From IMG/VR virus record IMGVR_UViG_2541047722_000008, positions 1-14,654 of that record: a DNA stretch of 14,654 bases; one strand, written 5' to 3'. Below, in pieces: positions 1-13,968 of this stretch. Each line of letters opens with the position of its first letter. Position 1 is the first letter of the stretch. Made by a program: the position numbers and the translations under genes. Source of the stretch: a virus. Lineage: Duplodnaviria > Heunggongvirae > Uroviricota > Caudoviricetes. The notes below the pieces were generated by a model, which saw only the letters and a program-made list of their open reading frames with translations, had not been told where the DNA came from and searched no databases.

Positions 1-1119
1 TCAAATAACCAACTTAACCCATTCCTGACCTCGAGTATCGTTATAGCGATCGGTGGTTGCCTGGACTTTATGTCCTAGTAATGTTTTTGTATCGATACCC
101 TGTGCACGGTACAGCCGTTCTGATAGAGAGCGTTGTTCATGAAATGTTGGCGGAGTTTTTCCTGCTGGTGGAATTATCCCAGCCAGATCCCGTGCTTTGG
201 CAAAGTAGTCGCTCAGGTTGTCTTTACTCATCGGCTTCGGTTGTTTCTGGTGCCGACTATGGATTAGATATGGACTTAATATTCTGTCTCGGCACCCATC
301 AATAACTTCTTTTAACGTTATCCCAATGGCATCACAGCGTAGTGTAAGCGGTAACGCCAGACGCATTCCGGTTTTTCCCTGGGTGATATGCAAGTGTTCG
401 TTCCACACATCTGAAAAACGCATGTGGCAAATGTCATCACGGCGCTGACCAGTAACAATCGCAAGAAGCATTGCGTTACGGATAAAGTGTTTTTCAGGCG
501 TTGCATTGTAAATTTTTTGCCAGTCTTCCATGGTGAGCCTGGCTCTGGTTACTTTAGGGATCGGTTTACGGGTAGCCTCCGGAGGATTCCATCCAGGAGG
601 AACTTCCCCTGCATGCTGTGCTTCTTTATAAATATCAACCCATAATCCACGATTTACTCTCGCTGTGCTGACCATGTCTTTATCCAGCCACTCATCCAGT
701 ATTAATGCAAAGTCTCTTACTTCCAGTTCTTTCAATGGGTGGTTTCCCAGACGGGAAACCAGGTATGCAGCCATTCGGGTTTTTTCTTTGTGAGTTGTAG
801 CTGCAATATCTCCATTTTTCAGTCGCGTGTCCTGTATTTTCAGATATCGATCAACCCATGCCTTTAATCTGATACCCCGACGTTTTGTTGCTGACGGACT
901 TTCATCAATTTTGCGCATGAAATATTCAGCTTCTGCTGCAGCTATTCGCTGATTGGCTGTGGAAGCGATTTTTTCTGCCTTACCTTTGTCTGTTCCGAGT
1001 CCGTGAAATTTTCCAGTCACAGGATTTTTATACTGGTAGTAAACTCTGCCAGTTCTGCGATCAAACTTTTCGTAAAGACCGGCTACGTCAGTGCTGTTTT
1101 TTCGTGGCCTCGGTGACAT
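1..1119 (-). CDS. int: Tyrosine site-specific integrase (lambda Int family)
   Basis: 372-aa ORF, ATG at 1119-1117, stop at 3-1. The C-terminal half carries the tyrosine-recombinase pattern (…GQRRDD…, …HSRHQ…, …LLGHK…, …TDRY). It sits at the prophage end next to an excisionase-like gene. Confidence 0.9.
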   Translation of the reverse strand: MSPRPRKNSTDVAGLYEKFDRRTGRVYYQYKNPVTGKFHGLGTDKGKAEKIASTANQRIAAAEAEYFMRKIDESPSATKRRGIRLKAWVDRYLKIQDTRLKNGDIAATTHKEKTRMAAYLVSRLGNHPLKELEVRDFALILDEWLDKDMVSTARVNRGLWVDIYKEAQHAGEVPPGWNPPEATRKPIPKVTRARLTMEDWQKIYNATPEKHFIRNAMLLAIVTGQRRDDICHMRFSDVWNEHLHITQGKTGMRLALPLTLRCDAIGITLKEVIDGCRDRILSPYLIHSRHQKQPKPMSKDNLSDYFAKARDLAGIIPPAGKTPPTFHEQRSLSERLYRAQGIDTKTLLGHKVQATTDRYNDTRGQEWVKLVI

Positions 1120-1357
1120 GAGTTAAAATCTCCTTCAGTGCATCATCATCGCCAGTATGAATTTCCGGCGCAATTCCCGTTTCACCAGGCCCAACAAATA
1201 CTGCTCGGCGATCTATCAGCCAACGCCCACGAATTTTTTGTGGTCTTGGAACGATGTATCCTAGTTTTCCGTATTTCACCAGGGTAGTGTTTGTTATTGG
1301 GAGACTGAACCGTTTTGGTTTCCACTCGTCGAGCGTTATCAGGTACTGTTCGCTCAT
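1088..1357 (-). CDS. Excisionase-like small DNA-binding protein
   Basis: 89 aa from ATG 1357 (GGAG 8 nt upstream); the six-frame track extends it to a GTG at 1366. Immediately upstream of int with a 32-bp overlap, as in lambdoid xis-int pairs. Function assigned by position and size only. Confidence 0.55.
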   Translation of the reverse strand: MSEQYLITLDEWKPKRFSLPITNTTLVKYGKLGYIVPRPQKIRGRWLIDRRAVFVGPGETGIAPEIHTGDDDALKEILTHVTEATKKQH

Positions 1358-1418
1358 GGCTATCACTCCGGAACGCGCCAGTTGCAGAATATCAACGACA
1401 ACTGGCGACGGTTGAACA

Positions 1419-3860
1419 TTAAAAATCAGCCTGATTCGGGATCAGTTTTTGCCAGATAGCTGAAACGTATTTTGCCTGGTAACGAGCGTCATCAAGTGCA
1501 TTATGGCGCTCACCTTCGAATGGGATAGCAGTTCTGGCATCGAAGTCTATGGCTTTCCCCAGCTCAACGATTGTGCGTACATCGCGATCGTTGTAGTAAC
1601 GCCACGGGCAGGGGATCCCCTGCCGTTCGTATGAACGGCGCAAAATCGTGTTGTCGAAGTTGGCTCCATTTCCCCAGACCTGAACAAAAAATTCACCGGA
1701 GTTTTCGTCGATAAATTCCCGCAATTGTAACAGTGCATCATCTAACGGGATTTCATCGGTCATAATGGCAGATTGCGCTTCGCGTGATTGCTTAAGCCAC
1801 CATTTAATGGTGTCCCGATCAATGACTCCGCCAGCAGTTTCCAGATCGATAGTCTTACTAAATTCCGGTCCCATATCTCCGGTTTGCGGATCGAAAAATA
1901 TTGCACCTATTGAGATGATCGGGGCATCAGGATTTTTTCCCATGGTTTCAAGGTCGATCATTAGATGGTCACACGTCCTGCTGGTGGATGTGATTTCGTG
2001 ATGACCGTTCACCTTAATTGAGTGATCTGCCGTCTCGCCAGTTTTATTATCGCTGGCGTGATGCTGATTGCCGCCAGGGTTCTCCTTGTGTGGATGTTCA
2101 GCGCCTTCCATTTCCTCCGGATCATTTTCCTGAACTTCAACCTGATTCTCTTCATCGAATGTTTCCTGGTATGTTGCGTCGCCCATCACCGCGCCACAAT
2201 CAGGGCAGTTGCCGCCGCCGGTCTGACCGCAGGCGGTGCAGACTTTTTCCGGTTCCTGTTGCGCTACTGATTCGGATTGTTTCGTTTCTGGCTCGTTTTG
2301 TAACGCATTTGGGCTGTTTTGTTCCGCTTTTTGGTCGTTCCGTTCCGATTCATGCTGGTTCTGGTTCACAGAATCGCGAGTCTGGATCCCCTTGACCCAT
2401 TTCGGATCATTAGGGTCGCTAATCCCCTCAACAAATTCACCACGCGATACAGCAAGTAACTTATCGGCGTCAGGCTGGCTGATATTGGCTGCCTGCATAA
2501 TTTTGTTTACTTCGTCAGCGGTGACTTTTACTTGGTTAGCGGAACTCACCTGCGACTGAGCATCCAGCGACTGCGCGTTCTGGCCATGTTCAGTTGTATC
2601 CGGTTCCATTGTTTCAGTTGTTGCCTGTTCACCTGCCATTGCGTCAGATGGTTGTGGTTTTTCTTCTTCTGTTTCACGCTCAGTAACCACCTCGCGGTTA
2701 ATTTCTTCCAGGATATCTTTTTCCGGCGTATGCCGGGCAGCTGTGAGAGTTTCCTTGCTGGGGTTCTCGTGATCAGTTTCCGTCAAATAGGCGTTGATAT
2801 ACCCCTGAAGGCGTCCCGGGTAGTGATAAAATTCAGGGTGTGCGCTTCGGATAAGTGCAAAAATAGCGGCGCGGGAATAGTCCAGAATACCCGGGGTTGC
2901 ACGAAGTGCTGCGGACCATTCTTTGAACGGACTTTCTTTGTTCAGGACTACTTCTTTTGCGCGACGATAAACGCTGCCCGGAATTTCATAAATATTAAAA
3001 TCCATCGGAAGTGTGGCTGCTGCAATCTCCACATCCAGTGTGTCGAGGGTGTGTACTAAATTCGGATTGCGATCGGTTTTGTTCCCACCGCCAGCATTAG
3101 CACCGGAAGCCGTGCGGGTGATGCGTGAAACACGATTTCCTTTCATCCACTCTTTTGTCAGCAGACCCCGATCAGTGTAGTCAGCGTCCAGGTATGCTTC
3201 GAAAAAAGCAGTTATTAGTCCCAGGTCTGAATTACCAGGATTAGGGAAAACTTTGTCAGTGTCACGAACCAGTTTGTGGAGGTCGCGAATCTCCAGCGAG
3301 TCGAGCAGACTGGTTTTATGCGAAATAGCCAGGGCAGTAACAGCCGGTAGTTCTTCAGCCCGTGCAATGTGTAATGCCTGGAGTTCGTCGCGTGAAACGT
3401 GCGTTACTGGTTTTTCGCTGCCGTGTTGAGCAAGCCAACGAATGGGCAGTTCCTGACCGGAGACAGGCAGAAGCATGCTCTCCTCAATCTCAGTCATGTC
3501 TTCGCCGTTGATGTTGGTATTGTCAGTGCTGGCTGGTTTGTCCTGAACAGAGGGGGAAGGGCCGATAAATGTCATTGTGATGCCATCTTTCCCGCCTTTT
3601 TCATAGCGGTTGCAGAATTCAGTATCAAACACGCCTTCTGGCGGAAGGTCGTCAACAACGGGCAAATTGACGCGGACGGGTTTTTTAAAGTCGTCTTCAT
3701 CATAATCGTTGTCATCCATTGCGGTAATGCAGCGGGAGATTGCAACAGATAATTTTTTTGCTGTAGTCCAGTAAAAACCACCTTTAATTCCCAGGCGTTT
3801 TCTTACTTTGTCATTTTTTGCTTCGCAATATAGTGCAAATTCTTCTTTATCAGTGCTCAT
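1419..3860 (-). CDS. Large exonuclease: RecE-like (exodeoxyribonuclease VIII family) N-terminal region, acidic Q/E/N-rich linker, Cys4 zinc-ribbon motif, C-terminal DEDDh (DnaQ-like) 3'-5' exonuclease domain
   Basis: 813-aa ORF. The C-terminal ~180 aa (coords ~1422-1961) carries DEDDh motifs: MIDLETMG (Exo I), VWGNGANFD (Exo II), HNALDDA (Exo III). CTACGQ…CPDCG lies at ~2196-2243. The N-terminal ~300 aa resemble my recollection of the Rac RecE N-terminal region (…[39 protein letters not shown]…). Confidence 0.85.
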
Positions 3861-3953
3861 TATTGGTAAACCTCATCACAGATTTAAGGGTGAACAAATC
3901 TCTGCCATTGCTGACATATAAGAATGAAACTGGATATTTATTACGGTGCTGTT

Positions 3954-4145
3954 TTAAAATCCTGCCGGGATTTCGTTATTATCCTGGTGAATAACTTTAT
4001 CGACCGGGTAACAGTTACCGGGAATTTTCTGTTCGGTTGCTGCAGTCACACACTCCTGCATTGTCCTGTGAACACTGACTGCAATATCAACTGGCTCTCC
4101 GGAAACAAGAAAAAATGTCAGAACAAGTGCAAATGCTGTATTCAT
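3954..4145 (-). CDS. ydfD: YdfD-like small membrane (lysis-type) protein
   Basis: 63 aa from ATG 4145, which overlaps the upstream TGA (ATGA coupling); AGGA sits 8 nt upstream. N-terminal hydrophobic segment MNTAFALVLTFFLVSG. Position right after dicB matches Qin ydfD (63 aa). The track's longer version starts at 4199. Confidence 0.6.
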   Translation of the reverse strand: MNTAFALVLTFFLVSGEPVDIAVSVHRTMQECVTAATEQKIPGNCYPVDKVIHQDNNEIPAGF

Positions 4146-4330
4146 TGCCAGCATCCTTTTTGTATCGGACGTAAACGGGCCAGCATTGAAAGAATGCATA
4201 TTTTATTTAATAACTCCCGTTCGTGTTTTCTCTTGTTAATGGCATCTTCAGTAAATACAGGGTTACTGATAGTGACACCAATTTCAAAACAACCTTCAGA
4301 CGTATTAACGTTTGGTAATAACGTTTCCAT
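4142..4330 (-). CDS. dicB: DicB-like cell-division inhibitor
   Basis: 62 aa (METLLPNVNTSEGCFEIGVTISNPVFTEDAINKRK…), ATG 4330 with GAGGA 7 nt upstream. Same length as, and near-identical to, my recollection of E. coli DicB; located downstream of DicF as in Qin. Confidence 0.75.
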   Translation of the reverse strand: METLLPNVNTSEGCFEIGVTISNPVFTEDAINKRKHERELLNKICILSMLARLRPIQKGCWQ

Positions 4331-4499
4331 TATCGCGTCCTCAACAATGAATTTTGTGATGCAGTGCCTGGTGCCTCCAGGTGACGTTAACCAGTTAACA
4401 ATTAACGCCGGATACAGAGAATCCACCCATAACACTGTTTTTGGTTTTAACTGTTCCGCGTGCGCTTAGCCGCATTCACCGCATCACAAAATTCACTTT

Positions 4500-4557
4500 A
4501 AAAAGGGCGGCAGAGCAGTCACGGAGTAAAACTGATACCGCCAAACGTCACCAGAAA
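4500..4557 (-). ncRNA. dicF: DicF small RNA (ftsZ-targeting sRNA processed from the dicB operon transcript)
   Basis: Minus strand reads TTTCTGGTGACGTTTGGCGGTATCAGTTTTACTCCGTGACTGCTCTGCCGCCCTTTTT, matching the DicF sequence as I recall it, including the 3' GC stem (GGCGG/CCGCC) plus U-run. It lies between the ydfC-like and dicB-like genes as in Qin. Confidence 0.75.
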
Positions 4558-4898
4558 ATTGATAACAGAGGGCGTTGCAGCGGGGTTGTCACTTAAGCGT
4601 ATGGTCAACCTGACAACCCGGTGTCCTCAACGGGGGAAGGAATAACCCCGCCATACTTACCGCCGCGCCATTTCGCGGATTGCCACAACCGGAAGCGCAC
4701 GGTCGACGAAAATTTAACGACAGGCTATCTATGAACCAGCTACCTCGCCGTGCGCTTTCGCGTTATGGTCTGACTTTTCAGGGAAATATCCTTTCAGTAA
4801 ACTGTCAGTGCCGGATGCTCACCCGTGTCCGGCGCACGCACTCCACCTCACCCGTGGAGAACTCCTTAATTACCAACCTTAGCTTCGTTGGTTAGCTA

Positions 4899-5117
4899 TT
4901 AACGCGGGTATGTAATCATTCTGGCAATGCTTAATGCCGCTGCTTTTTCCAGATTGGTGATATCCTGCTCCAGAGCGGACAGATTTTCAGCCTGCTTAGC
5001 CCTGGCTTCATTAGCCCATTTCAGATCCTGCGCTGCATTAATTTTCTGGCGCATCCACTCATAAAGTTCATCATCGGTATAGTCTGGCGCGATGATGACG
5101 GGTTCTCGTTTCTGCAT
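4899..5117 (-). CDS. ydfC: YdfC-like small protein of the dicB operon
   Basis: 72 aa, ATG 5117 with AAGGAG 5 nt upstream. Same length and operon position as Qin YdfC; no motif recognised. Confidence 0.55.
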   Translation of the reverse strand: MQKREPVIIAPDYTDDELYEWMRQKINAAQDLKWANEARAKQAENLSALEQDITNLEKAAALSIARMITYPR

Positions 5118-5209
5118 GTCGGCTCCTTGTGGTTAGCGTTGCCTGCTTTTAACCACGTCAGGCGAGGTGGTATCCTCTGAGGGGTCTGTTACTCGAGAGG
5201 AAATTGGTT

Positions 5210-5410
5210 ATGAATACAATCAAGTTTTCTTGCCCAGAATGTGGTGGCGAAGTCTTTGACACATCCTTTAAGCCGCAGGGCTCTGACAGTTTCGCGGGAG
5301 CCATCTGCAAAAATTGTGGTCACCTTGTAACTGAAGATGAGTCCTCGCAGTTCGATGACGAAATCGTTGACAATATCTTCGGTGCACTCACCAGAGACTT
5401 TCTGAAATAA
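5210..5410 (+). CDS. Small zinc-ribbon protein (CxxC-N19-CxxC) with acidic C-terminal tail
   Basis: 66 aa: MNTIKFSCPECGG…CKNCGH…DESSQFDDEIVDN. ATG 5210 with GAGG 9 nt upstream; codons look typical for E. coli; a strong hairpin follows the stop. It conflicts with the antisense ORF 5189..5545, so this is not certain. Confidence 0.5.
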   Translation: MNTIKFSCPECGGEVFDTSFKPQGSDSFAGAICKNCGHLVTEDESSQFDDEIVDNIFGALTRDFLK

Positions 5411-5456
5411 AGACGCATACCGCTTAGTTACCGCTCTGATAACTCTTACCTGTCCG

Positions 5457-5500
5457 GCAATGGCGCTGATGTCAATATAAAGCGCCATTGCTGCTTCTTT
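5457..5500 (+). terminator. Hairpin (11-bp perfect stem GCAATGGCGCT/AGCGCCATTGC, 13-nt loop) followed by a T-rich stretch; putative terminator for the zinc-ribbon gene
   Basis: Perfect inverted repeat 5457-5467 / 5481-5491, then TGCTTCTTTG. The U-tract is weak, so factor-independent termination is uncertain. Confidence 0.35.
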
Positions 5501-5619
5501 GCCGATCCCGTGATGCCTTCCATTCTGATGTTTGACTTCGCCCACTGAGAAATCCTCTGTTTCCCCTTAACGCCGGGGTAGCGGAACTGTTTGCTGAGAA
5601 CACCGTGCGGTGTCTTGAT

Positions 5620-5680
5620 GAATAAAATTTAGAATAACCTAAGATATGTGGTCAAGATTTTTATGTAGAAAAACCTAAGT
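5620..5680 (-). promoter_or_regulatory. Candidate repressor-controlled leftward promoter (PdicB / pL analogue) with CTTAGGTT operator half-sites
   Basis: Minus strand: -35 TTGACC (5655-5650), 18-bp spacer, -10 TAAATT (5631-5626). The 8-mer AACCTAAG (= CTTAGGTT on the minus strand) occurs at 5636-5643 and 5672-5679, the same motif found at the divergent promoter on the other side of the repressor gene. Confidence 0.4.
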
Positions 5681-5753
5681 TTTTTGATGTGAAAAACACA
5701 AGTGTTTGAAAGTTTGTGCTTTTTATTACAGGGTGTGGAGAAAAAAGGGAGGG

Positions 5754-6161
5754 TTATTTGTTTGCGCTTCTTTTGCGAGCTTTGAGTAGTTCTTCAAAAA
5801 GTTTGTTGAAATTTTCAACTCGAGCACGCATCTCTGACAACAGGGCCTTTTGCTCTGACTCAGGCAGTGCGTCGAACAGTTGAAGTAACTCTTTTTGATC
5901 TTCTGTCAGAAGGGCTGGCTGATTATCCGGGATCGGTTCGCCTGGTTGTTTATCTTCATCCCCAAAAAGAAGCCAAGTCGGTGAGCACTGAAGCGCTTGG
6001 CTCAGTGCGAATAATCTTTTCCCCGCCGGCTGTGTTTCATCTCTTTCCCATTGAGAAATTGTTACGTGAGCCACTTTGACCAGCTTACCTAATGCGGCCT
6101 GAGACAGTTTTAATTTTTTACGCCTATGTAAGAGGCGAGCACCGAAGGTTTCGTTTTTCAT
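5754..6161 (-). CDS. dicA: DicA-like prophage repressor (XRE-family HTH; no LexA-like peptidase domain)
   Basis: 135 aa with an N-terminal HTH (…LKLSQAALGKLVKVAHVTISQWERDETQP…) and the C-terminal segment …LFALSQALQCSPTWLLFGDEDKQP…MRARVENFNKLFEELLKARKR, closely matching my recollection of E. coli DicA (135 aa). No Ala-Gly/Ser-Lys autocleavage module. Confidence 0.85.
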   Translation of the reverse strand: MKNETFGARLLHRRKKLKLSQAALGKLVKVAHVTISQWERDETQPAGKRLFALSQALQCSPTWLLFGDEDKQPGEPIPDNQPALLTEDQKELLQLFDALPESEQKALLSEMRARVENFNKLFEELLKARKRSANK

Positions 6162-6237
6162 ATTAGGGAATTCTAATTTTTCTTGACTTAGGTTTCTCTA
6201 CGATCTAGTTTCCTTAGGAAAATCTAAGGAGCTCGAT
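6162..6237. promoter_or_regulatory. Divergent promoter/operator region between the repressor and the cro-like gene
   Basis: Plus strand: -35 TTGACT (6183-6188), 17-bp spacer, -10 TAGTTT (6206-6211), AAGGAG (6226-6231) 6 nt before ATG 6238. CTTAGGTT at 6187-6194 overlaps the -35; further copies CCTTAGG (6212-6218) and CTAAGG (6224-6229). On the minus strand a TAGAAT (6175-6170) lies ~8 nt before the repressor ATG, suggesting a leaderless PRM-like transcript. Confidence 0.5.
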
Positions 6238-6465
6238 ATGTTGAAAATTGATGCTATAGCGTTTTTTGGCAGCAAAACAAAGCTTGCCAATGCCGCAGGA
6301 GTTAGGCTGGCAAGCATTGCTGCATGGGGGGAACTGGTTCCTGAAGGTCGCGCGATGCGCCTGCAAGAGGCATCCGGCGGGGAACTTCAGTACGACCCCA
6401 AAGTTTATGATGAATATCGTAAGGCAAAGCGGGCGGGGCGGTTGAACAATGAAAATCACCCCTGA
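6238..6465 (+). CDS. dicC: DicC/YdaS-family Cro-like regulator
   Basis: 75 aa (MLKIDAIAFFGSKTKLANAAGVRLASIAAWGELVPEGRAMRLQEASGGELQYDPKVY…), divergent from the repressor, strong SD. Matches my recollection of DicC/YdaS-family proteins. Confidence 0.8.
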   Translation: MLKIDAIAFFGSKTKLANAAGVRLASIAAWGELVPEGRAMRLQEASGGELQYDPKVYDEYRKAKRAGRLNNENHP

Positions 6466-7000
6466 ACAGGTTTGTGAGGCTCTGGATGCCTGGGTATGCC
6501 GACCAGGAATGACACAGGAGCAGGCGACGATATTAATCACGGAAGCGTTCTGGGCTCTGGAAGAACGCCCGAACATCGATGTTCAACGTGTCACGTTTGA
6601 TGATGGTGTGGTTGATCAACGGGCGCTGGGCGTTAACCGGGTGAAGATATTCGAACGCTGGAAAGCTATCGACACCAGGGATAAGCGGGAAAAATTCACG
6701 GCGCTGATTCCGGCAATTATGGAGGCTATCCGGATCAGTGATTTCAGGTTGTATTGTGAAATTACTGACGGAAAAAGCATTACGTACATGATCGCCAGGT
6801 TAAACAAAGAATATGGCGATGTGGTGGAGTCCGGACTGCTTTTTGCAGATCCTGCTGTTGTGGAACGTGAGACTGACGAGCTTATAGAAAAAGCTATTGC
6901 TTTCAAGCATGCGTATCGTCAGCAATACCAACATTACTTTGCAGATAAACAAATATCTGTCTGGGGTTCGTATGAGTATCGATGCACTACGATGGGCTAA
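6449..7000 (+). CDS. YdaT-like protein (proposed CII-like regulator / putative toxin of the YdaS-YdaT pair)
   Basis: 183 aa, overlapping the end of dicC by 17 bp. The N-terminus (MKITPEQVCEALDAW…) and its position directly after the Cro-like gene match the YdaT family as I recall it; assignment is by synteny and general resemblance. Confidence 0.6.
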   Translation: MKITPEQVCEALDAWVCRPGMTQEQATILITEAFWALEERPNIDVQRVTFDDGVVDQRALGVNRVKIFERWKAIDTRDKREKFTALIPAIMEAIRISDFRLYCEITDGKSITYMIARLNKEYGDVVESGLLFADPAVVERETDELIEKAIAFKHAYRQQYQHYFADKQISVWGSYEYRCTTMG

Positions 7001-8012
7001 AAAGGTGAAAACCGGCAGTTCATCCAGTAAGTCAGTATTAACCTGGCTTGCTGATATGTGCGGTGCCGATTTGTGTGCATACCCGTCTGTATCTGCACTG
7101 GCAGAAGTAACGGAACTGAACAAAAAGACTGTGCAGGACAGCTTACGACACCTGATGGAGATTGGGTTAATTGTTGATACCGGTGAGAGAAAAGGCCGAA
7201 CAAAGCAGATCGTAGTGTACCGACTTATCGGTGTTGAAGAAAGTGTTACCGAGGCTGAATACACCCAAAAATGGGAGTCTTTAAAGGTGGGTAAAATTGG
7301 TACTGTTAATAAAAACAGTACCGAAAATGGCTATGTTTCAGCACAAAACAGACCCAAAAACGGAACTCTTAGCTGCATGGAAAATAACCAAAGACACCCA
7401 AATTTTCCATCAAAGACACCCAAAAATGGATCACGGAACCCAAAGGAACCCAAAGATCTAAACCCCACACATAACACACGCGAGAGTGCTCCGACCAGTG
7501 AGCAGGAAGTTTTGTCGTTACAGGCAGCACCCCCTGTATTCCTGGATGGCCTGAGCGAACCCATCGGAAAATTTCCGATGACCGATAGCTGGTATCCGTC
7601 ACGGGATTTTCGACGACGGGCTGCGTTGTGGGGGATGGCTTTGCCGGAGACAGAATTTACACCTGCTGAACTTGCCGCCTTCCGGGACTACTGGACAGCG
7701 GAGGGGAAAGTGTTTACGCAGATTCAGTGGGAGCAGAAATTCGCCCGTCACGTAAATCACGTCAGGGCGCAGGTTAAACCAGTCAGCAAGGGGGTAAACC
7801 ATGCAGCAGCACCAGGTGGCACCGCATCACGGGCAGTTCAGGAAATTCGGGCAGCACGTGAGCAGTGGGAACGTGAAAACGGATTTATCAGCGACGGAAA
7901 CGGCCTGGAAGCTGTGGGAGCTCATGGGGGAGGTTTATTCGAACCGCTGGACCCAGAAGAATGGGGCCGCACCTTCGAAGCTCTGGATTGCACAGATTGG
8001 CGCGATGACTGA
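6972..8012 (+). CDS. Replication initiator, O-like: N-terminal winged-helix DNA-binding domain plus C-terminal DnaT-like domain
   Basis: In-frame ATG 6972 (MSIDALRWAKK…) preceded by GGGG. N-terminal HTH (…SVSALAEVTELNKKTVQDSLRHLMEIGLIV…); C-terminal region (…FTPAELAAFRDYWTAEG…) resembles the DnaT C-terminal domain. The ORF has good E. coli-like codon usage up to its stop at 8012, overlapping the next gene by 212 bp. The track's start at 6897 is inside the previous gene. Confidence 0.7.
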   Translation: MSIDALRWAKKVKTGSSSSKSVLTWLADMCGADLCAYPSVSALAEVTELNKKTVQDSLRHLMEIGLIVDTGERKGRTKQIVVYRLIGVEESVTEAEYTQKWESLKVGKIGTVNKNSTENGYVSAQNRPKNGTLSCMENNQRHPNFPSKTPKNGSRNPKEPKDLNPTHNTRESAPTSEQEVLSLQAAPPVFLDGLSEPIGKFPMTDSWYPSRDFRRRAALWGMALPETEFTPAELAAFRDYWTAEGKVFTQIQWEQKFARHVNHVRAQVKPVSKGVNHAAAPGGTASRAVQEIRAAREQWERENGFISDGNGLEAVGAHGGGLFEPLDPEEWGRTFEALDCTDWRDD

Positions 8013-8466
8013 GCAGCAAATCCGACAGGTCTGCCGCCAGTGCATGGACCGCTGCCGGGCGGGTGAAACATGGCCTCCGGACCTGGCTGAGTTTGTGGCA
8101 CTGATTTCGGAAAGCGGAGCCAATCCATTCGGTCTGACGGTGGATGCCGTGATGGAGGAGTACCGTCGCTGGCGCAACGAGTCCTGGCGATACGACGGGA
8201 GCGATAAATACCCGTGGTCTCAGCCTGTGCTGTATCACATTTGCCTCGAGATGCGTTCAAAGGGGATTGAGCGGCAGATGACCGAAGGGGAGTTAAAACG
8301 GCTTGCAGAACGGCAGCTGACGAAATGGGCAAAGCATGTTAGTAACGGCCTGAGCGTTCCGCCAGTCCGGCGACAACTGGCGGCCCCCAAACGTCCTGCG
8401 GGACCAACGCCAATTGAGTTGCTGAAACAGGAATATGAACGCCGGAAAGCGGCTGGGTTTGTCTGA
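7801..8466 (+). CDS. Lambda P-like replication protein (helicase loader family)
   Basis: 221 aa from ATG 7801 (AAGGGGG 6 nt upstream). Segments …PPDLAEFVAL…, …YPWSQPVLYHICLEMR…, …TEGELKRLAERQL… align with lambda P (…PSPGQFVAWC…, …YPWKSNAHYWLVTNLY…, …TDAELRRKAADEL…) as I recall it. An alternative start at ATG 8005 (ATGACTGA overlap with the O stop) would give 153 aa. Confidence 0.6.
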   Translation: MQQHQVAPHHGQFRKFGQHVSSGNVKTDLSATETAWKLWELMGEVYSNRWTQKNGAAPSKLWIAQIGAMTEQQIRQVCRQCMDRCRAGETWPPDLAEFVALISESGANPFGLTVDAVMEEYRRWRNESWRYDGSDKYPWSQPVLYHICLEMRSKGIERQMTEGELKRLAERQLTKWAKHVSNGLSVPPVRRQLAAPKRPAGPTPIELLKQEYERRKAAGFV

Positions 8467-8498
8467 TTTGAGAAGTAATTTTTACCGGGAGGAAATTT

Positions 8499-9269
8499 AT
8501 GGAGACTGTTTTTGACGCACTGAAAGCGATGGGAAAAGCCACGTCGGTAGAGCTGGCTGCGCGACTTGATATCAGTCGTGAAGAAGTGCTGAACGAGCTG
8601 TGGGAACTGAAAAAGGCTGGCTTCGTTGATAAAAGCGTATACACCTGGCGTGTGGCTGGCGAAGGTGAATCCGGGGTAGCCGAAGAGCAGCCAGCACAAT
8701 CTGAAGCACCGGATGTGCTAACCAGGGAGGTCGAACGAAAAGTTACCGCTGACATGATGATTGAGTTTATCGGTCAGGAGGGTGCTAAAACGAGTGAGGA
8801 ACTGGCGGGTAAGTTCGGTGTCAGCACTCGCAAGGTTGCTTCCACGCTGGCGGTAGTAACCGCAACGGGGCGGCTGGCACGCGTAAACCAGAACGGTAAA
8901 TTTCGCTACTGCATGCCGGGCGAGAATTTACCAGTAAAGCCGAAAGTCGCATCGGTAACGGAAAATGATGGTAAAGCCTTTCCTCAGCCAGCCGGCGTTG
9001 CGTTACCAGTACAGGAAGCTGCAACACAGGAAGATATTAAAACAGAAACTGTGGCGGACATTGTGCAGTCGTTGCCATCGTTCACCGAAACGCGAGCGGA
9101 TGACCTGATTTTACCATCGCTGCATATGGCAAACCGCGAACTGCGTCGGGCGAAAAATCATGTCCAGAAGTGGGAGCGTGTCTGCGCCGCGCTGCGGGAG
9201 TTGAACAAGCATCGGGATATTGTTCGACAGATTACTGATTTTTCCCGCCGTGTTGCATCGGAAAAGTGA
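8499..9269 (+). CDS. DUF1627-like prophage protein (two winged-helix-like repeats)
   Basis: 256 aa, GGGAGG 6 nt before ATG. Starts [41 protein letters not shown]… with a second similar repeat (…[33 protein letters not shown]…). Resembles a conserved family downstream of replication genes in E. coli lambdoid prophages. Confidence 0.65.
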
Positions 9270-9284
9270 TTGCCGGAGGCGCTT

Positions 9285-9689
9285 ATGGCAAAAGTATTTA
9301 CACAAGAAGAGCGGGAAAAAATTAAGGGGCAGATTGTTGAACTTGTACGTCTGAGCGGTCGCGAGACGTTACGGCAACTGGAAGCGAAAACAGGTGCGAC
9401 AAGATATCTGATGAGTGTTCTCGCCAGAGAGCTGGTTGCCAGTGGCGATGTATACAATTCTGGCTACGGGTTATTTCCGTCTGAACAGGCTCGTAAGGAC
9501 TGGCAAAACGCCCGCAAAAAACTATCGAGGGCAAAGGCGAAGAAACCGGTTGTGGTTGCTCCGGACCTTATCTGGTCATTACCAGACGGAGAAATACGCC
9601 GCTACGACAGGCGTCAGAACATGATTTGCCGTGAGTGCCGGGAAAGCGAAGTTATGCAGCGTATACTAACGTTCTATTGGGGAATATAG
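9285..9689 (+). CDS. Hypothetical protein (134 aa)
   Basis: ATG 9285 with GGAGG 5 nt upstream (the track's start at 9270 is a TTG). Contains a CRECRE motif near the C-terminus; no family recognised. Confidence 0.55.
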   Translation: MAKVFTQEEREKIKGQIVELVRLSGRETLRQLEAKTGATRYLMSVLARELVASGDVYNSGYGLFPSEQARKDWQNARKKLSRAKAKKPVVVAPDLIWSLPDGEIRRYDRRQNMICRECRESEVMQRILTFYWGI

Positions 9690-9704
9690 CCACTAAATAA
9701 GGTA

Positions 9705-10016
9705 ATGAACCAAATGAACACGGAAAAAGCGAAAACGCAGCTCAGGATAATGCTTGCCGGTCCGGCTGCGAGTTATACGACACATTCACCAGCCATAAAA
9801 AAGGTTCTTGATGAACTGGAAGCCAAAGACAAGCGCATTGCAGAACTGGAGGCAAGGGAAGTCCAGCTACCGGCTGGCTATGAACTTCGATATGGACACC
9901 CGATAAATGCTGATGAGCGCCATGTCATGATACCTAAGGAAAATGGCAGCTGGATTTATCTGGCTGATTTAGAGCGCGCACTACGTGTTGCTGGCATTCG
10001 CATCAAAGGAGAGTGA
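9705..10016 (+). CDS. Hypothetical protein, possibly ead/Ea22-like (103 aa)
   Basis: Central coiled-coil-like segment (VLDELEAKDKRIAELEAREVQL); closely spaced with its neighbours. Family assignment is tentative. Confidence 0.5.
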   Translation: MNQMNTEKAKTQLRIMLAGPAASYTTHSPAIKKVLDELEAKDKRIAELEAREVQLPAGYELRYGHPINADERHVMIPKENGSWIYLADLERALRVAGIRIKGE

Positions 10017-10017
10017 C

Positions 10018-10374
10018 GTGGAAATAAAACCAGAAGATGAGTTAAGTAATATTGTTTTATTTCCGGTAAAAGAAGATGACCCACGTAATCAGGTTAATTT
10101 TCTTTATGAGCCATCGGAAAGACCATATTGCCATCACGCTTCTGTCCGGGTTGATGAAAAAGAGCGTCAGGTCCGCTGTAAAATCTGCGGTGCAGTTGTG
10201 GAGCCGTTTGACTGGATGCTCTCTGTGGCGAAAAGAGAAACCAGACTGGCAGATGATGTAAGGCTATTGCGTCAGGAGGAACGGGAAAGGCGGAAAAATA
10301 TAGAAAAGCTAATTCAGATTGAGCGTAACGCAAAAGCGCGGATACGCAGAGCGACAAAATCCAGAACTGAATAA
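10018..10374 (+). CDS. Hypothetical zinc-finger protein with basic coiled-coil tail (118 aa)
   Basis: GTG 10018 with AGGAG 6 nt upstream, one nt after the previous stop. Motif C-HH…C-KIC-G (YCHHASVRVDEKERQVRCKICG) and an R/K/E-rich C-terminus. Confidence 0.5.
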   Translation: MEIKPEDELSNIVLFPVKEDDPRNQVNFLYEPSERPYCHHASVRVDEKERQVRCKICGAVVEPFDWMLSVAKRETRLADDVRLLRQEERERRKNIEKLIQIERNAKARIRRATKSRTE

Positions 10375-10469
10375 TTAAATTTAGCACTGTTAAAAATTTA
10401 ATCCTTAACCGGAGGGATTTCTGTACCCTCAGAACATCAGGAGGCCGCCTGAAAGGGCAGTAATGAAAA

Positions 10470-11021
10470 ATGACTGAATTAACAAAAGAGCAATTAATCG
10501 AAGAAGCTAAATTTAAAATAGCGATTGCGAAATGCCACCCTAATTCAGAGATGGCACGGGTAGAGGGTGAGTTATTCAAAATTGCACTGGCATCGCTGGA
10601 AGCGGAGCCTGTTGGTGAATTTTATGAGTATAAGCCGGGCGGCTGGTATCAGCATTCGGCTGGAGATAAAGCGCCAAAGTGGATACAACTCTACGCTGTG
10701 CCGCCAGCGCTCGCAGCACCTGAAGGACTGGTTAAAGCAGTGCGCTTTTATGAACAGGTAAAGCGTGAGAATCCACCAGTCGAAACAGGAGCATGGAAAG
10801 ATGCTGTTGATTGGGTACTCAAAGAGGCCTGCTGTGCTGTCATTCTGGGTAAAGCCGACAATCCATTAGCATCCAGTAACCAAGTTGGCGAATTAACAAT
10901 GTGGGTTAAACGACTGGTCAGTCAACTGAAAAAAGCTAATCCAGACTGCAAATTACCGGAGAAGGCGATGGACTACCTGAAGCGGAACGAACTGATAAGC
11001 GCGGAGGATGTTTTGCGATGA
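10470..11021 (+). CDS. Hypothetical protein (183 aa)
   Basis: Long ORF with E. coli-like codon usage, in the same orientation as its neighbours; weak SD; no motif recognised. Confidence 0.55.
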   Translation: MTELTKEQLIEEAKFKIAIAKCHPNSEMARVEGELFKIALASLEAEPVGEFYEYKPGGWYQHSAGDKAPKWIQLYAVPPALAAPEGLVKAVRFYEQVKRENPPVETGAWKDAVDWVLKEACCAVILGKADNPLASSNQVGELTMWVKRLVSQLKKANPDCKLPEKAMDYLKRNELISAEDVLR

Positions 11022-11134
11022 CCTGGCCTGAAGCATTCACAACGGTAGGAATTGCAATGGCGGTGGCGCTGGTGGTGTATTCGATTTGCCGCTGGGGGGA
11101 AGGTATTAAAAAACGCCCCGCACACAGACGTTGA
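11018..11134 (+). CDS. Small single-pass membrane peptide (38 aa), translationally coupled to the upstream gene
   Basis: ATG 11018 overlaps the upstream stop (ATGA). Peptide MTWPEAFTTVGIAMAVALVVYSICRWGEGIKKRPAHRR: hydrophobic helix plus basic tail. Below the length cut-off of the ORF track. Confidence 0.35.
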   Translation: MTWPEAFTTVGIAMAVALVVYSICRWGEGIKKRPAHRR

Positions 11135-11262
11135 GCGCCTGAGATGTGGGGATAGGGAGTTAGTTAAATAGTTGTACAACAATACCTGATTTTATATTGA
11201 AGCAAGAAATAGGTTGCTACATATTGAATCATGCGTGTGTACGTCAAATATGGGAGGTCATC

Positions 11263-11352
11263 GTGCTGGTTCTGAAATGTGCGCTGGCTATTGCGGCAGT
11301 AATGGCAATTTATTGTCTTGTTATCGTTCTTATGAATCACCTCTCTGATTGA
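11263..11352 (+). CDS. Candidate small hydrophobic peptide (29 aa)
   Basis: GTG 11263 with GGGAGG 5 nt upstream. Peptide (V/M)LVLKCALAIAAVMAIYCLVIVLMNHLSD is almost entirely hydrophobic. Ends at the hok promoter -35. Expression unproven. Confidence 0.25.
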   Translation: MLVLKCALAIAAVMAIYCLVIVLMNHLSD

Positions 11353-11359
11353 TTTTATA

Positions 11360-11388
11360 TTGGCGAGGTGACGTGAGTTAAGTAGAAT
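11360..11388 (+). promoter_or_regulatory. Candidate hok mRNA promoter
   Basis: -35 TTGGCG (11360-11365), 17-bp spacer, -10 TAGAAT (11383-11388). The downstream leader (…GCTTGAGGCTATCTGCC…GGCAGATAGAGAAAAGCCCC…) resembles the folded 5' region of R1 hok mRNA as I recall it. Confidence 0.4.
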
Positions 11389-11449
11389 TGCTGCGGGTGC
11401 TTGAGGCTATCTGCCTCGGGCATGAACACCAACGGCAGATAGAGAAAAG

Positions 11450-11520
11450 CCCCAGTTAACATTACGCGTCCTGCAAGACGCTTAACATTAATCTGAGGCT
11501 CAATCCATGCTGAACACATG
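11450..11520 (-). ncRNA. sok: Candidate Sok antisense RNA (approximate boundaries)
   Basis: Minus-strand promoter-like elements: -35 TTGCCT (11550-11545), 17-bp spacer, -10 TAACCT (11527-11522), antisense to the mok SD/start region as in hok/sok loci. A GCGTC/GACGC hairpin and U-rich stretch lie at ~11440-11480. Ends not determined. Confidence 0.35.
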
Positions 11521-11719
11521 TAGGTTAGCCTCTTACGTGCCGAAAGGCAAGGAGAAGCAGGCTATGAAGCAGCAAAAGGCGATGCTAATCGCCCTGATCG
11601 TCATCTGTTTAACCGTCATAGTGACGGCACTGGTAACGAGGAAAGACCTCTGCGAGGTACGAATCCGAACCGGCCAGACGGAGGTCGCTGTCTTCACAGC
11701 TTACGAACCTGAGGAGTAA
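11507..11719 (+). CDS. mok: Mok (modulator of killing) reading frame: N-terminal extension in frame with hok
   Basis: ATG 11507 with GAGG 8 nt upstream; MLNTCRLASYVPKGKEKQA then reads into hok, as I recall for chromosomal mokC/hokC. Confidence 0.55.
   Translation: MLNTCRLASYVPKGKEKQAMKQQKAMLIALIVICLTVIVTALVTRKDLCEVRIRTGQTEVAVFTAYEPEE
11564..11719 (+). CDS. hok: Hok/Gef-family type I toxin
   Basis: 51 aa MKQQKAMLIALIVICLTVIVTALVTRKDLCEVRIRTGQTEVAVFTAYEPEE: the Hok/Gef signature (TM helix, then TRKDLCEV.IRTGQTEVAVF.AYE). AAGGAG 9 nt upstream. Confidence 0.9.
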   Translation: MKQQKAMLIALIVICLTVIVTALVTRKDLCEVRIRTGQTEVAVFTAYEPEE

Positions 11720-11788
11720 GAGACCAGGCGGGGGAGAAATCCCTCGCCACCTCTGATGAGTCAGGCATCCTCAATGCACCCACACTTA

Positions 11789-11820
11789 ACCCGCTTCGGC
11801 GGGTTTTTGTTTTTATTTTC
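11789..11820 (+). terminator. Rho-independent terminator downstream of hok
   Basis: ACCCGC-TTCG-GCGGGT hairpin followed by TTTTTGTTTTTATTTT. Confidence 0.65.
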
Positions 11821-11939
11821 AACGCGTTTGAAGTTTTGGATGGTGCCGGAATAGAATCAAAAATACTTAAGTAGCGCGCAGGGAGAAGAGGGATGGACCC
11901 CGAACAGGGGAGTGCTATTTATCTGGAAGGATTCTGTTG

Positions 11940-12197
11940 ATGAAAATCGAAGAATTACGTGAAATTTTTAGTGAAGATGGCCTCTATACTGTGCGCGTTG
12001 AGAATGGCGCTATTGTCAGCCACTGCCGTATTAAATGTTTACAGTCTCAACAAAGGAAGAGTGGAGCTGCGTTAATTCATTTTGTGGATGGGCTTGTGAC
12101 GGATGGTTTTATTTTGCGTGCAAATGAATTTGTCACATCGTTGCCGTCTCTGAAAAAAGCTGGGATTAAGGCTGGTTTTTCTGCTTTTGAAGATTAG
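11940..12197 (+). CDS. Hypothetical small protein (85 aa), possibly Rem-like by position
   Basis: ATG 11940 (the track starts 3 nt earlier at a TTG), GGAAGGA upstream. Located between hok and the DUF968 gene, where Qin carries rem; no motif recognised. Confidence 0.45.
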   Translation: MKIEELREIFSEDGLYTVRVENGAIVSHCRIKCLQSQQRKSGAALIHFVDGLVTDGFILRANEFVTSLPSLKKAGIKAGFSAFED

Positions 12198-12266
12198 TGA
12201 ATTCATCTACAATTCAGCGCAGGGCTGAACCCCTGTTGAGTAACACTGTGCCACCGGAGAAAGCCG

Positions 12267-12545
12267 ATGGCGCAAAATTCCAGACTACACAATTCTGATA
12301 ATTCAGCCGTCTTTGTCAGCAGGCACGGGCGGCGTTCTCACACATTCAAATATGACTGGTACCAGCATGACCCCTGCACTGAAGAACAGGCCGAATGGCT
12401 GATTCAGAACTACCGCAGACGTGGGTATGTGTTTAGGAAAGCCCTCACCCTCGATTATCGTCTCTGGATAATCTCCGTCAGGCTCCCTTATTCCGAACGC
12501 CCGCCGCGTCCGTCCCGCACATTCCAGCAACGCATCTGGAGGTAA
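12267..12545 (+). CDS. Hypothetical protein (92 aa)
   Basis: ATG 12267 with GGAGA 6 nt upstream; its stop is one nt before the next gene's start. No motif recognised. Confidence 0.5.
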   Translation: MAQNSRLHNSDNSAVFVSRHGRRSHTFKYDWYQHDPCTEEQAEWLIQNYRRRGYVFRKALTLDYRLWIISVRLPYSERPPRPSRTFQQRIWR

Positions 12546-12546
12546 C

Positions 12547-13602
12547 GTGCGGGTATTGCTTCGACCTGTTCCTGTACCGGAACTTGGGCTGGTGGTCCTT
12601 AAGCCTGGCCGTGAATCCATGCAGGTATTTCATAACCCTCGAGTGCTGGTGGAGCCGGAACCGAAAAGCATGCGTAATCTGCCGTCCGGGGTCGTTCCTG
12701 CCGCTCGCCAGCCGCTGGTGGAAGACAAAACATTGCTGCCGTTTTTCAGTAACGCACGGGTGATTCGTGCTGCTGGTGGTGCTGGTGCATTGTCTGACTG
12801 GCTGTTGCGCCATATTAAATCCTGCCAGTGGCCACACGGCGATTATCATCACAGCGAAACCGTCATTCACTGTTATGGTACCGGCGCAATGGTGTTGTGC
12901 TGGCACTGCGACAACCAGCTGCGTGACCAGACATCCGAATCACTCGAGCAACTTGCTCATCAAAACCTGTCAGCATGGATGATTGACGTCATCGGTCACG
13001 CAATAAGCGGTACGCAGGAGCGTGAATTATCTTTGGCTGAATTATCCTGGTGGGCGGTCCGCAATCAGGTGGCGGACGCGCTACCGGAAGCGGTATTACG
13101 TCGTTCGCTGGGGTTGCGTGCGGAAAAAATCCGCTCAATGTACCGTGAAAGCGATATCGTACCGGGAGAGCAGACCGCCACCAGCATACTGAAGCAGCGC
13201 ACAAAAAATCTTGCGCCGCTGCCTCACGCCCACCAGCAAAACCCGCCACAGGAAAAGACGGTGGTCAGCATTGCCGTTGATCCGGAGTCACCGGCTCAGT
13301 ATCTCCAGCGCCAGAAACCACAACGGGAAGAGATGCCTGTATACACGCGCTGGGTAAAAACGCAGAAATGCATGACGTGCGGTAATCAGGCAGATGATCC
13401 GCATCACATCATTGGTCATGGACTGGGAGGGATGGGAACAAAGGCTGATGATTTGTTTGTTATTCCGCTGTGCCGTAAATGTCATAACGAACTGCACGCC
13501 GGGGTAAAAGATTTTGAAGAAAAACACGGCAGCCAGCTGTTGTTGCTGATTCGTTTTTTAATGCACGCGAGAAATTCGGGTGTCCTGAAGTGGAAAGCAT
13601 GA
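12547..13602 (+). CDS. DUF968-family protein with C-terminal HNH/His-Me-finger-like motif (YdfU-like)
   Basis: 351 aa, GTG 12547 with GGAGG upstream. C-terminal motif …CMTCGNQADDPHHIIGHGLGGMGTKADDLFVIPLCRKCHNELHAG… (Cys pairs flanking HH…H…N…H). Position before rusA/Q matches Qin ydfU (~349 aa). Confidence 0.7.
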   Translation: MRVLLRPVPVPELGLVVLKPGRESMQVFHNPRVLVEPEPKSMRNLPSGVVPAARQPLVEDKTLLPFFSNARVIRAAGGAGALSDWLLRHIKSCQWPHGDYHHSETVIHCYGTGAMVLCWHCDNQLRDQTSESLEQLAHQNLSAWMIDVIGHAISGTQERELSLAELSWWAVRNQVADALPEAVLRRSLGLRAEKIRSMYRESDIVPGEQTATSILKQRTKNLAPLPHAHQQNPPQEKTVVSIAVDPESPAQYLQRQKPQREEMPVYTRWVKTQKCMTCGNQADDPHHIIGHGLGGMGTKADDLFVIPLCRKCHNELHAGVKDFEEKHGSQLLLLIRFLMHARNSGVLKWKA

Positions 13603-13968
13603 ATGACTGAACGCATAGAATTTGTTTTGCCTTACCCGCCGACGGTGAATACCTACTGGCGACGTCATGGCAATACGTATTTCATCTCGGAGGCCGGAAA
13701 GCGTTATCGCCGTGATGTGGCGCTAATTGTTCGCCAGCAGCGGCTGAAATTAAACCTGTCCGGAAGGCTGGCGATAAAGATTATTGCAGAGCCACCGGAT
13801 AAGCGCCGTCGTGACTTGGACAATATCCTGAAGGCACCACTGGATGCGCTGACGCATGCCGGACTACTTATAGACGACGAGCAGTTTGATGAAATCAATA
13901 TTGTGCGCGGTCAGCTCGTTCCTGGTGGGCGGCTGGGGATAAAAATCACAGAACTGGAGTGCGCATGA
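13603..13968 (+). CDS. rusA: RusA Holliday-junction resolvase
   Basis: 121 aa with the RusA hallmarks (…LPYPPTVNTYWRRH…, …PDKRRRDLDNILKAPLDALT…, …GGRLGIKITEL…). Start immediately follows the upstream stop. Confidence 0.9.
   Translation: MTERIEFVLPYPPTVNTYWRRHGNTYFISEAGKRYRRDVALIVRQQRLKLNLSGRLAIKIIAEPPDKRRRDLDNILKAPLDALTHAGLLIDDEQFDEINIVRGQLVPGGRLGIKITELECA

Follow-up and report, generated by a model that had tools for sequence, protein, structure and literature searches.

The immunity and early region of a lambdoid prophage of the Qin/dicB type lies in the 14,654-nucleotide stretch of IMG/VR record IMGVR_UViG_2541047722_000008 (Caudoviricetes; positions 1 to 14,654) that is referred to here as the window. 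Between its DicA-type repressor gene and the genes ydfC, DicF and dicB, that is, in the slot that is taken by ydfA and ydfB in the Qin prophage of Escherichia coli K-12, is found a prophage segment of about 400 bp, which probably encodes one protein on each strand. One is a small zinc-ribbon protein on the plus strand; the other is the product of a longer open reading frame (ORF) on the minus strand, which encloses the whole zinc-ribbon gene in antisense. The features of the pair are as follows.

5210–5410, plus strand: zinc-ribbon gene of the ECs_2282 family, 66 aa, with the motifs CPEC…CKNCGH and an acidic C-terminal helix.
5196–5201, plus strand: Shine-Dalgarno site of the zinc-ribbon gene, AGAGGA, 8 nt before the ATG.
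5149–5176, plus strand: candidate sigma-70 promoter of the zinc-ribbon gene, TTAACC (5149–5154), a 16-nt spacer and the extended -10 element TGgTATCCT (5168–5176).
5455–5503, plus strand: intrinsic-terminator-like hairpin with a U-rich tail; 5455–5467 pairs with 5481–5493 over 13 bp.
5189–5545, minus strand: early-operon ORF of PHROG 21318, 118 aa from GTG 5545 or 99 aa from ATG 5488.

A sequence-only reading of this stretch had pointed out the plus-strand ORF with its CxxC pairs, acidic tail, Shine-Dalgarno site and downstream hairpin, as well as the 118-aa ORF on the opposite strand, and all of them are located where it had placed them. These features exceed chance expectation, because both ORFs are conserved across genera and because the product of the plus-strand ORF scores 57.3 bits with the NCBIfam model NF047912 (“ECs_2282 family putative zinc-binding protein”), whose curated cut-off is 37. 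Residues 4–59 align with positions 1–56 of the 60 positions of this profile, and the two CxxC pairs (C8/C11 and C33/C36) are invariant in every aligned member, so that the protein belongs to NF047912 by the definition of the family. The gene runs from ATG 5210 to a stop codon that ends at 5410 (MNTIKFSCPECGGEVFDTSFKPQGSDSFAGAICKNCGHLVTEDESSQFDDEIVDNIFGALTRDFLK), and the ORF listing extends it to an upstream TTG at 5204. In the protein, CPEC and CKNC correspond to residues 8–11 and 33–36, respectively, and the composition read from the sequence comprises 12 Asp or Glu versus 5 Lys or Arg residues. Homologues with 45–70% identity are found in Citrobacter, Klebsiella, Enterobacter, Serratia and metagenomic contigs, and down to 45% identity C8, C11, C33, C36, G37 and H38 are invariant among them. 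Binding of zinc by the protein is thus putative, as deduced from these motifs. In Pfam, only sub-threshold matches to generic zinc ribbons were obtained for this ORF, and a search of PDB sequences with profiles of both proteins of the pair returned nothing below an E value of 0.2. As to its role, one might guess that the zinc-ribbon protein is a small binder of protein or nucleic acid acting in the lysogen. Its acidic tail, QFDDEIVDNIF, was also considered as a possible mimic of the C-terminal tip of the single-stranded DNA-binding protein SSB.

The pattern of substitutions in the zinc-ribbon gene is that of a coding sequence. Among 40 E. coli haplotypes, its polymorphic sites are distributed over codon positions 1, 2 and 3 as 6/1/16. 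The Nei-Gojobori ratio of nonsynonymous to synonymous change (omega) of the plus frame is 0.07–0.11 for close pairs of the E. coli type and 0.15–0.35 for divergent pairs; for the same close pairs, that of the antisense (minus) frame is 0.9–1.9. The OLGenie-type ratio dNN/dSN of the plus frame is 0.15 (0.05–0.34) in the E. coli clade and 0.23 (0.13–0.35) in the clade of Klebsiella and Citrobacter. When selection on the minus frame alone was simulated, plus-frame omega values as low as those observed arose with p = 0.004–0.016, and all four cysteines were kept in 1% of the runs. Comparative analysis thereby shows the plus frame to be under strong purifying selection everywhere, and it appears near certain that the zinc-ribbon gene is a genuine gene.

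The signals around this gene are conserved to various extents. In the relatives L090 and L091 (L numbers denote the homologous loci fetched for comparison), the Shine-Dalgarno sites are GAGGAGG and AAGGAGG, respectively, both 6 nt before the ATG and, in these loci, outside the minus ORF. The candidate promoter scores below the threshold of the promoter scan; positions 5140–5176 are free of variation across the 40 E. coli haplotypes, and the motif TGnTATC(C/T)T recurs upstream of the zinc-ribbon ORF in the fetched lineages, with the group of L090, L091 and L097 retaining only GGGTATATCCT. As a separate observation, two interleaved inverted repeats, GCCTG…CAGGC and ACCAC…GTGGT, are present at 5141–5171, in the spacer of the candidate promoter. 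They are conserved across genera, including a variant in L101, CCACGC…GCGTGG, that retains the symmetry, and they could represent an operator or else a structured RNA element in which the minus ORF ends.

The hairpin starts 45 nt after the stop codon of the zinc-ribbon gene. Its predicted stability is -23.1 kcal/mol (z = -4.2), and none of 200 shuffled sequences folds equally well. Eleven of 12 lineages retain it in this position and show compensatory changes, and in 7 of those 11 it is more stable as the plus-sense RNA. Canonical U tracts follow it in L095 and L100, and the U tract of the window itself is weak. In L109 (4201–4300), the hairpin has degenerated while both ORFs and the promoter motif are intact. 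Judged from these sequence-level properties, the zinc-ribbon gene qualifies as having an intrinsic terminator of its own. The bases of the hairpin also code for the N-terminal part of the minus-strand protein and contain the ATG of that ORF (5488–5486).

The minus ORF matches phrog_21318 with an E value of 7e-66, its residues 1–99 covering profile positions 1–99 of 99. Relative to the zinc-ribbon gene it is in an exact codon register, in which position 3 of the plus codons is opposite position 1 of the minus codons and the two second positions face each other. Two starts are conceivable in the window: GTG 5545, which is preceded 7 nt upstream by AGAGGA (5558–5553) and occupies the position homologous to the ATG of K-12 ydfA, and ATG 5488, which has a weak Shine-Dalgarno site. 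The 19 codons that are added by the GTG start are not conserved in the manner of coding sequence, and two haplotypes carry a 1-bp deletion there. The frame is open in all 88 E. coli copies and in all the deeper lineages. EDL933 and many other RefSeq genomes annotate the minus ORF at this locus. In Pfam, no match was found for its product, DUF1391 included, and fold and family searches assign no function to it.

The 26 codons by which the minus ORF extends past the plus stop codon (window 5411–5488) provide the cleanest test for coding, since only the minus frame could code there. In the clade of Klebsiella and Citrobacter, the minimum numbers of changes at codon positions 1, 2 and 3 of this extension are 8/7/24 (chi-square p = 0.0009), and pairwise omega values are 0.09–0.3. 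Across the deep lineages, the minus frame is the only one of the six that is free of stops over the extension, and it has the highest BLOSUM similarity; strong Shine-Dalgarno sites with an ATG precede the ORF in these lineages, for example GGAGAGGAAATG, GGAGCAGAAATG and CAGGAGGTCGTATG. The probability that the minus frame stays open by chance was computed from the sequences of the plus proteins together with codon usage in the phage genes of the window. It is 0.04–0.24 per lineage, which amounts to about 2e-7 over 7 independent lineages, or to about 2e-4 if only 4 lineages are counted as independent; the reciprocal probability for the plus frame is 5e-8. In the part that lies outside the overlap, the substitution patterns thus show purifying selection on the minus frame, and this only outside the E. 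coli lineage. In the E. coli lineage to which the window belongs, the minus gene may be relaxed or decaying, although it is open in all 88 copies.

The two frames are conserved together. In Escherichia, Citrobacter, Klebsiella, Enterobacter and Serratia, every complete relative that was found has both frames open, which as far as comparative data go demonstrates their joint conservation in these five genera. The sequence-only reading had envisaged that the 118-aa ORF might turn out to have clear homologues and the zinc-ribbon ORF none; homology searches with both products gave a different picture, in that both have homologues, which always occur together. An exhaustive hidden Markov model (HMM) search with the minus profile yielded 7 cluster representatives among 1.8 billion, and therefore the minus family is not broader than that of the zinc ribbon. 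Among its members that could be traced to DNA, the two most distant ones retain an intact antisense zinc ribbon (CPKC…CDNCGH in L100 and CQKC…CSNCGH in L101), and both ORFs are present in the Serratia locus L106 and in L109. The position of the module is usually right after the repressor gene, on the side of the leftward early operon (PL side); in L090 and L091 it lies right after cro, at the position of cII, on the side of the rightward one (PR side). On either side, the minus ORF is always co-directional with the early operon. When species-representative genomes were scanned with the zinc-ribbon alignment, only two spurious partial matches were obtained, in metagenome-assembled genomes of a member of the Bacteroidota and of an archaeon. 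The module is strain-variable prophage DNA.

The surroundings of the pair place it at the head of the early-left operon, with the following features.

6238–6465, plus strand: DicC/Cro gene.
5754–6161, minus strand: DicA-type repressor gene, full-length match to NCBIfam PRK09706 (DicA), 236.7 bits.
5626–5655, minus strand: early-left promoter (dicBp/PL-type), TTGACC, 18-nt spacer, TAAATT, from the promoter scan.
5546–5621, minus strand: operon leader, of which 5558–5621 is common to K-12 Qin, from alignment and fold of the minus-sense RNA.
4899–5117, minus strand: ydfC, the next gene of the early operon, phrog_1744 (E value of 2e-39), and annotated as such by RefSeq in near-identical loci.
4505–4556, minus strand: DicF, Rfam match of 76.7 bits.
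4142–4330, minus strand: dicB.

A YdaT-like gene follows DicC/Cro rightwards, and leftwards beyond dicB lie a DUF1482 (YdfD-like) ORF and an exonuclease gene. In K-12, DicA represses dicBp, from which a polycistronic transcript is made and processed into DicF, and dicBp turns on spontaneously in a subpopulation of cells (PMC10448788). For strain EDL933, a Cappable-seq study reported an early start site at 1848930 on the minus strand in 8 of 8 conditions (PMC10469882, Table S5). Alignment places this site near position 5619 of the window, 7 nt downstream of the -10 hexamer. The EDL933 start-site data thus show that the early promoter fires in vivo, and the minus ORF follows directly in the same direction, in keeping with what the sequence-only reading had proposed about its orientation relative to the operon.

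That reading had also failed to recognize any counterpart of ydfA or ydfB, and had considered that the content of the module might differ here from that of Qin. Both points hold: BLASTP of the minus ORF product against YdfA and YdfB of K-12 gave no alignment at E values up to 100, and an unrelated module of about 400 bp replaces the two genes, with the DNA aligning only at the leader (5558–5621). A small convergent gene embedded in a dicB-type operon, the other option that had been put forward, is borne out as well, by the family HMM match, plus-frame omega values of 0.07–0.23, the four invariant cysteines and the conserved Shine-Dalgarno site, promoter-like motif and hairpin. The suggestion that one strand or the other would be coding stands with respect to this convergent gene and fails with respect to exclusivity, the minus ORF having a coding signature of its own outside the overlap. 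In the same manner, the location that had been called the operon leader is correct as regards the slot; because of this coding signature, however, the region is not a non-coding leader, and is better described as the ORF that opens the early operon, inside which an antisense gene is nested.

Together, these data are best accounted for by a mobile dual-coding module, in which a zinc-ribbon cassette is nested in antisense within the first early gene and the two are expressed reciprocally, a reading to which we assign a probability of roughly 0.6. The mobile module would then correspond to positions 5140–5560, about 400 bp, with both of its strands coding. On the minus strand, a PHROG 21318 ORF of 93–118 aa would come first in the transcript from the DicA-controlled early-left promoter (start at about 5619), followed by ydfC, DicF and dicB. 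The plus strand would hold a self-contained cassette inside that ORF, made up of an extended -10 promoter, a Shine-Dalgarno site, the 66-aa zinc ribbon and a terminator, with the terminator palindrome of the cassette also providing the start region and the N-terminal codons of the minus ORF. As long as the early promoter is held low by the repressor, the zinc-ribbon cassette might be expressed, in the manner of a lysogen-phase “moron”; upon derepression, polymerases reading through from the early promoter and the complementary RNA would silence it. The cassette in turn might dampen leaky early transcripts that head toward ydfC, DicF and dicB. The reciprocal expression of the cassette and of the early ORF is inferred from the fact that the two units converge. 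The transcriptional interference that the sequence-only reading had raised is a reasonable conjecture here as well. That both frames encode functional proteins somewhere in the family seems reasonably probable, and appreciably less so for the lineage of the window itself. A more ambitious formulation has about an even chance of being correct: the two genes of a long-lived nested antisense pair would have been co-inherited, and would have travelled jointly between PL and PR operons, in lambdoid prophages of at least five genera of the Enterobacterales, both proteins would be selected, one palindrome would serve as terminator and as N-terminal and start region of the partner, and expression would be hard-wired to be mutually exclusive, in the lysogenic phase for one protein and in the early lytic phase for the other, upstream of DicF and DicB.

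Several observations weigh against the dual-coding module, on the side of either frame or of their expression. The zinc-ribbon gene carries a nonsense mutation in 21 of the 88 fetched E. coli copies, EDL933 included. The allele E14* (GAA>TAA, window 5249 G>T; position 2063 in L108, which is EDL933; also L003) is found in EDL933 and in 20 of the 88 E. coli copies, and a second one, E44*, in a single copy (L083); in the minus ORF, the base change of E14* results in F>L. Because of these alleles, that of EDL933 among them, the zinc-ribbon gene appears to be dispensable in those strains. In the E. coli clade, the minus frame has an extension that lacks codon periodicity (9/6/11) and an omega of about 0.9 within the overlap, and the Shine-Dalgarno site before ATG 5488 has degenerated, with the ATG buried in the stem of the hairpin. 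Opposite-strand “shadow” ORFs are, moreover, common in this codon register. The OLGenie-type ratio dNN/dNS of the minus frame within the overlap is 0.39 (bootstrap interval 0.22–0.63), and simulations of selection on the plus frame alone gave medians of 0.5–1.1, with p values between 0.003 and 0.27 depending on the model of transition bias and exchangeability. As this simulated null overlaps the observed value, the overlap does not allow minus-frame selection to be told apart from side effects of selection on the plus frame. The within-overlap estimate was therefore dropped as evidence, given that plus-only selection with realistic transition bias can yield it. The AlphaFold2 models of both proteins are of low confidence, with a pLDDT (predicted local distance difference test) of 55 for the zinc-ribbon protein and 64 for the minus-ORF protein. 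As to expression, the published data on the locus, as far as the available parts of the sources extend, consist of the minus-strand start site only. No plus-strand start site was found among the entries listed in the EDL933 Cappable-seq tables, in a strain that carries a pseudogene allele; since these tables were available in part and the EDL933 copy is a pseudogene, this absence is uninformative. The early start site was detected in all eight EDL933 conditions, each of them uninduced, and the strict picture of one unit on and the other off is for this reason too simple. The data show an early promoter that is never fully silent in the population, which fits the spontaneous switching of dicBp (PMC10448788).

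Some of these points would be expected if only the zinc-ribbon gene were real, the minus frame being a shadow held open by zinc-ribbon codon usage, the region consisting of an operon leader with one convergent small gene, in agreement with the sequence-only reading, and gene callers choosing the minus ORF merely for its length. The values of minus-frame omega in the E. coli clade (0.87–1.9) and the absence of periodicity from its extension are in line with this explanation, as are the agreement of the within-overlap test with the plus-only null under some models, the lack of a function for the minus protein in fold and family searches, and the fact that the current annotation by the Prokaryotic Genome Annotation Pipeline (PGAP) and the curated NCBIfam model both name the plus ORF. 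It is nevertheless unlikely, as it does not account for the 8/7/24 distribution in the extension (p = 0.0009), for protein-level conservation across deep lineages in a region that is stop-free in that frame alone, or for strong conserved Shine-Dalgarno sites with an ATG in front of the minus ORF. Under it, the frame would have stayed open with a probability of about 2e-7 or 2e-4 for seven or four lineages, respectively, and the minus ORF would have no reason to be always sense to the early operon in two different operon positions. The converse proposal, in which the minus ORF alone is real and opens the early operon as an ordinary gene, the zinc-ribbon ORF being an antisense artefact, is very improbable. 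It would agree with the direction of the minus ORF along the operon, directly downstream of the start site mapped in EDL933, with its annotation in the RefSeq record of EDL933, and with the nonsense codon in the plus ORF of EDL933 and 20 other copies while the minus frame is intact in 88 of 88. Plus-frame omega values of 0.07–0.23 nevertheless fall below the minus-only null, and the four invariant cysteines, G37 and H38 force specific third bases of minus codons in every lineage. Conserved features of the plus strand, furthermore, include a Shine-Dalgarno site with an ATG, a promoter motif and a hairpin whose plus-sense form is the more stable one.

A different kind of proposal concerns function and is compatible with one or both frames being coding. 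The zinc-ribbon protein might be an anti-restriction protein, a DNA mimic, a Lar-like protein, or a superinfection-exclusion or defence factor of the lysogen, part of which the sequence-only reading had offered as a speculation. The protein is small and acidic (net charge of about -7) and contains a zinc ribbon. Its gene adjoins the immunity region in antisense to early transcription, as lysogen-expressed accessory genes typically do. Weak, sub-threshold matches were obtained with the Lar family TIGR03655 (15.7 bits, E value of 0.014, against a cut-off of 39.6, so that the protein is not assigned to this family), with the Lar-like phrog_6422 (E value of 0.0098, with no individually significant stretch) and with the PADLOC model PDC-M14A (E value of 0.002). 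All of them are far below the cut-offs and cover generic CxxC knuckles only, no structural or sequence relative with a known function was found in the searches, and about a quarter of the E. coli copies that were sampled carry an inactivated gene. The anti-restriction or DNA-mimic idea thus found no backing in these comparisons, and such a function is quite improbable.

The dual-coding module can be compared with several known systems. The type member of the ECs_2282 family is ECs_2282 of prophage Sp12 of strain Sakai (2249953–2250153), a locus in which both ORFs are intact, and the plus ORF of the window is a full-length member of 66 aa with both CxxC pairs. The neighbors are the same in Sp12, where ECs_2282 is convergent to ydfC-dicB and adjoins the repressor gene. 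The proteins themselves do not differ; the new element is the conserved antisense ORF, inside which every complete member that could be traced to DNA is located. RefSeq annotation disagrees between such loci, the plus strand being annotated in Sakai and the minus strand in EDL933. K-12 Qin has the same slot between dicBp and ydfC, the same leader (5558–5621) and the same operon logic (PMC10448788), but two small ORFs, ydfA and ydfB, where the window has a single ORF of 99–118 aa that lacks similarity to YdfA or YdfB and encloses a further gene on the opposite strand.

Antisense overlapping pairs have been reported in enterohaemorrhagic E. coli (EHEC), namely nog1/citC, ano/ECs2385, asa, laoB and pop/ompA, and the remnant of the plus ORF in EDL933 is listed in the BLAST table S12 of the same study (bioRxiv 10.1101/2020.11.18.388249); it was not found among the expressed candidates of that study. 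The EHEC pairs likewise consist of two long opposite-strand ORFs in one locus of an EHEC-type genome. They are described as young, narrowly distributed ORFs in old genes, with mainly expression-based support, whereas the two partners are here equally widespread and co-inherited across genera, with support from comparative evidence.

The resemblance to lambdoid accessory genes is also partial. Morons, a concept of Hendrix and Juhala exemplified by bor, lom and rexAB of lambda, are equipped with their own promoter and terminator and inserted in phage operons. The plus gene likewise appears as a compact unit of promoter (a candidate), Shine-Dalgarno site, ORF and terminator that is present in only some related prophages and adjoins the immunity region. 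Classical morons sit between genes, however, whereas the plus gene sits inside a gene, in antisense, and moves together with it. The OOP RNA of lambda is a short non-coding RNA that overlaps the 3' end of cII. The present locus similarly has a convergent unit overlapping an early gene beside the immunity region, and in L090 and L091 the module lies exactly at the cII position; unlike OOP, the antisense unit encodes a conserved protein here and overlaps two thirds of its partner. In the searched literature, no description of the pairing of the zinc-ribbon gene with the minus ORF was found, and ECs2282 was found in no main text; the locus tags of neighboring genes led to one microarray paper, which is unrelated. 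The zinc-ribbon gene is already known as a curated family and the minus ORF as a PHROG family, and it is their pairing that appears to be new.

It is rare in bacteria for one stretch of DNA to encode a protein on each of its strands. Functional antisense-encoded proteins of bacteria and prophages are disputed, most proposed cases being young and resting on expression data alone. At the locus described here, comparative evidence points to both frames over a deep divergence, and the locus is small and easily manipulated. Annotation pipelines that allow one gene per locus will keep flipping between the strands here. DicF and DicB affect cell division and protect against phage infection (PMC10448788, PMC6832061), and DicF has been tied to EHEC virulence by a paper that is cited in this published work. 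A convergent gene at the head of the operon could tune the output of both.

Other observations concern the early transcripts and the neighboring DNA. The first 60 or so nucleotides of the early transcript are nearly identical to those of K-12 Qin despite the different downstream genes. This leader (5558–5621) contains two small hairpins, GACACCG-CA-CGGTGTT and CCCC-GGCGTTAA-GGGG, and could act as a regulatory or nut-like element; an Rfam scan of 5050–5800 gave no match even at E values up to 1. In the EDL933 Cappable-seq data, the transcript of the DicA-type repressor gene begins 2 nt before the ATG in 8 of 8 conditions (EDL933 1849474; window position about 6161–6163, minus strand), and the repressor mRNA is therefore essentially leaderless, like that of lambda cI from PRM.

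In some relatives, such as Sakai Sp12 (L105, 6052–6523), a PaaA2/ParE toxin-antitoxin pair lies between the repressor gene and the module, and in others (for example L095 and L096) a gene for a YedD-like lipoprotein or an HSDR_N nuclease-like protein does. This slot, immediately downstream of the repressor gene, is an accessory-gene hot spot. Between dicB/DicF and ydfC, EDL933 and TUM1881 have a segment of about 540 bp (L001, 3381–3998; L108, 1071–1689) that is missing from the window, within 4557–4898; it encodes a 135-aa minus-strand ORF and a plus-strand ORF of about 77 aa that overlap by a few bases. Finally, a sok antisense RNA is present at 11395–11569 on the plus strand (Rfam RF01794, 113.5 bits), adjoining a 70-aa ORF at 11507–11719 on the same strand, and the pair resembles a toxin-antitoxin module of the hok/sok type, within the late part of the prophage.

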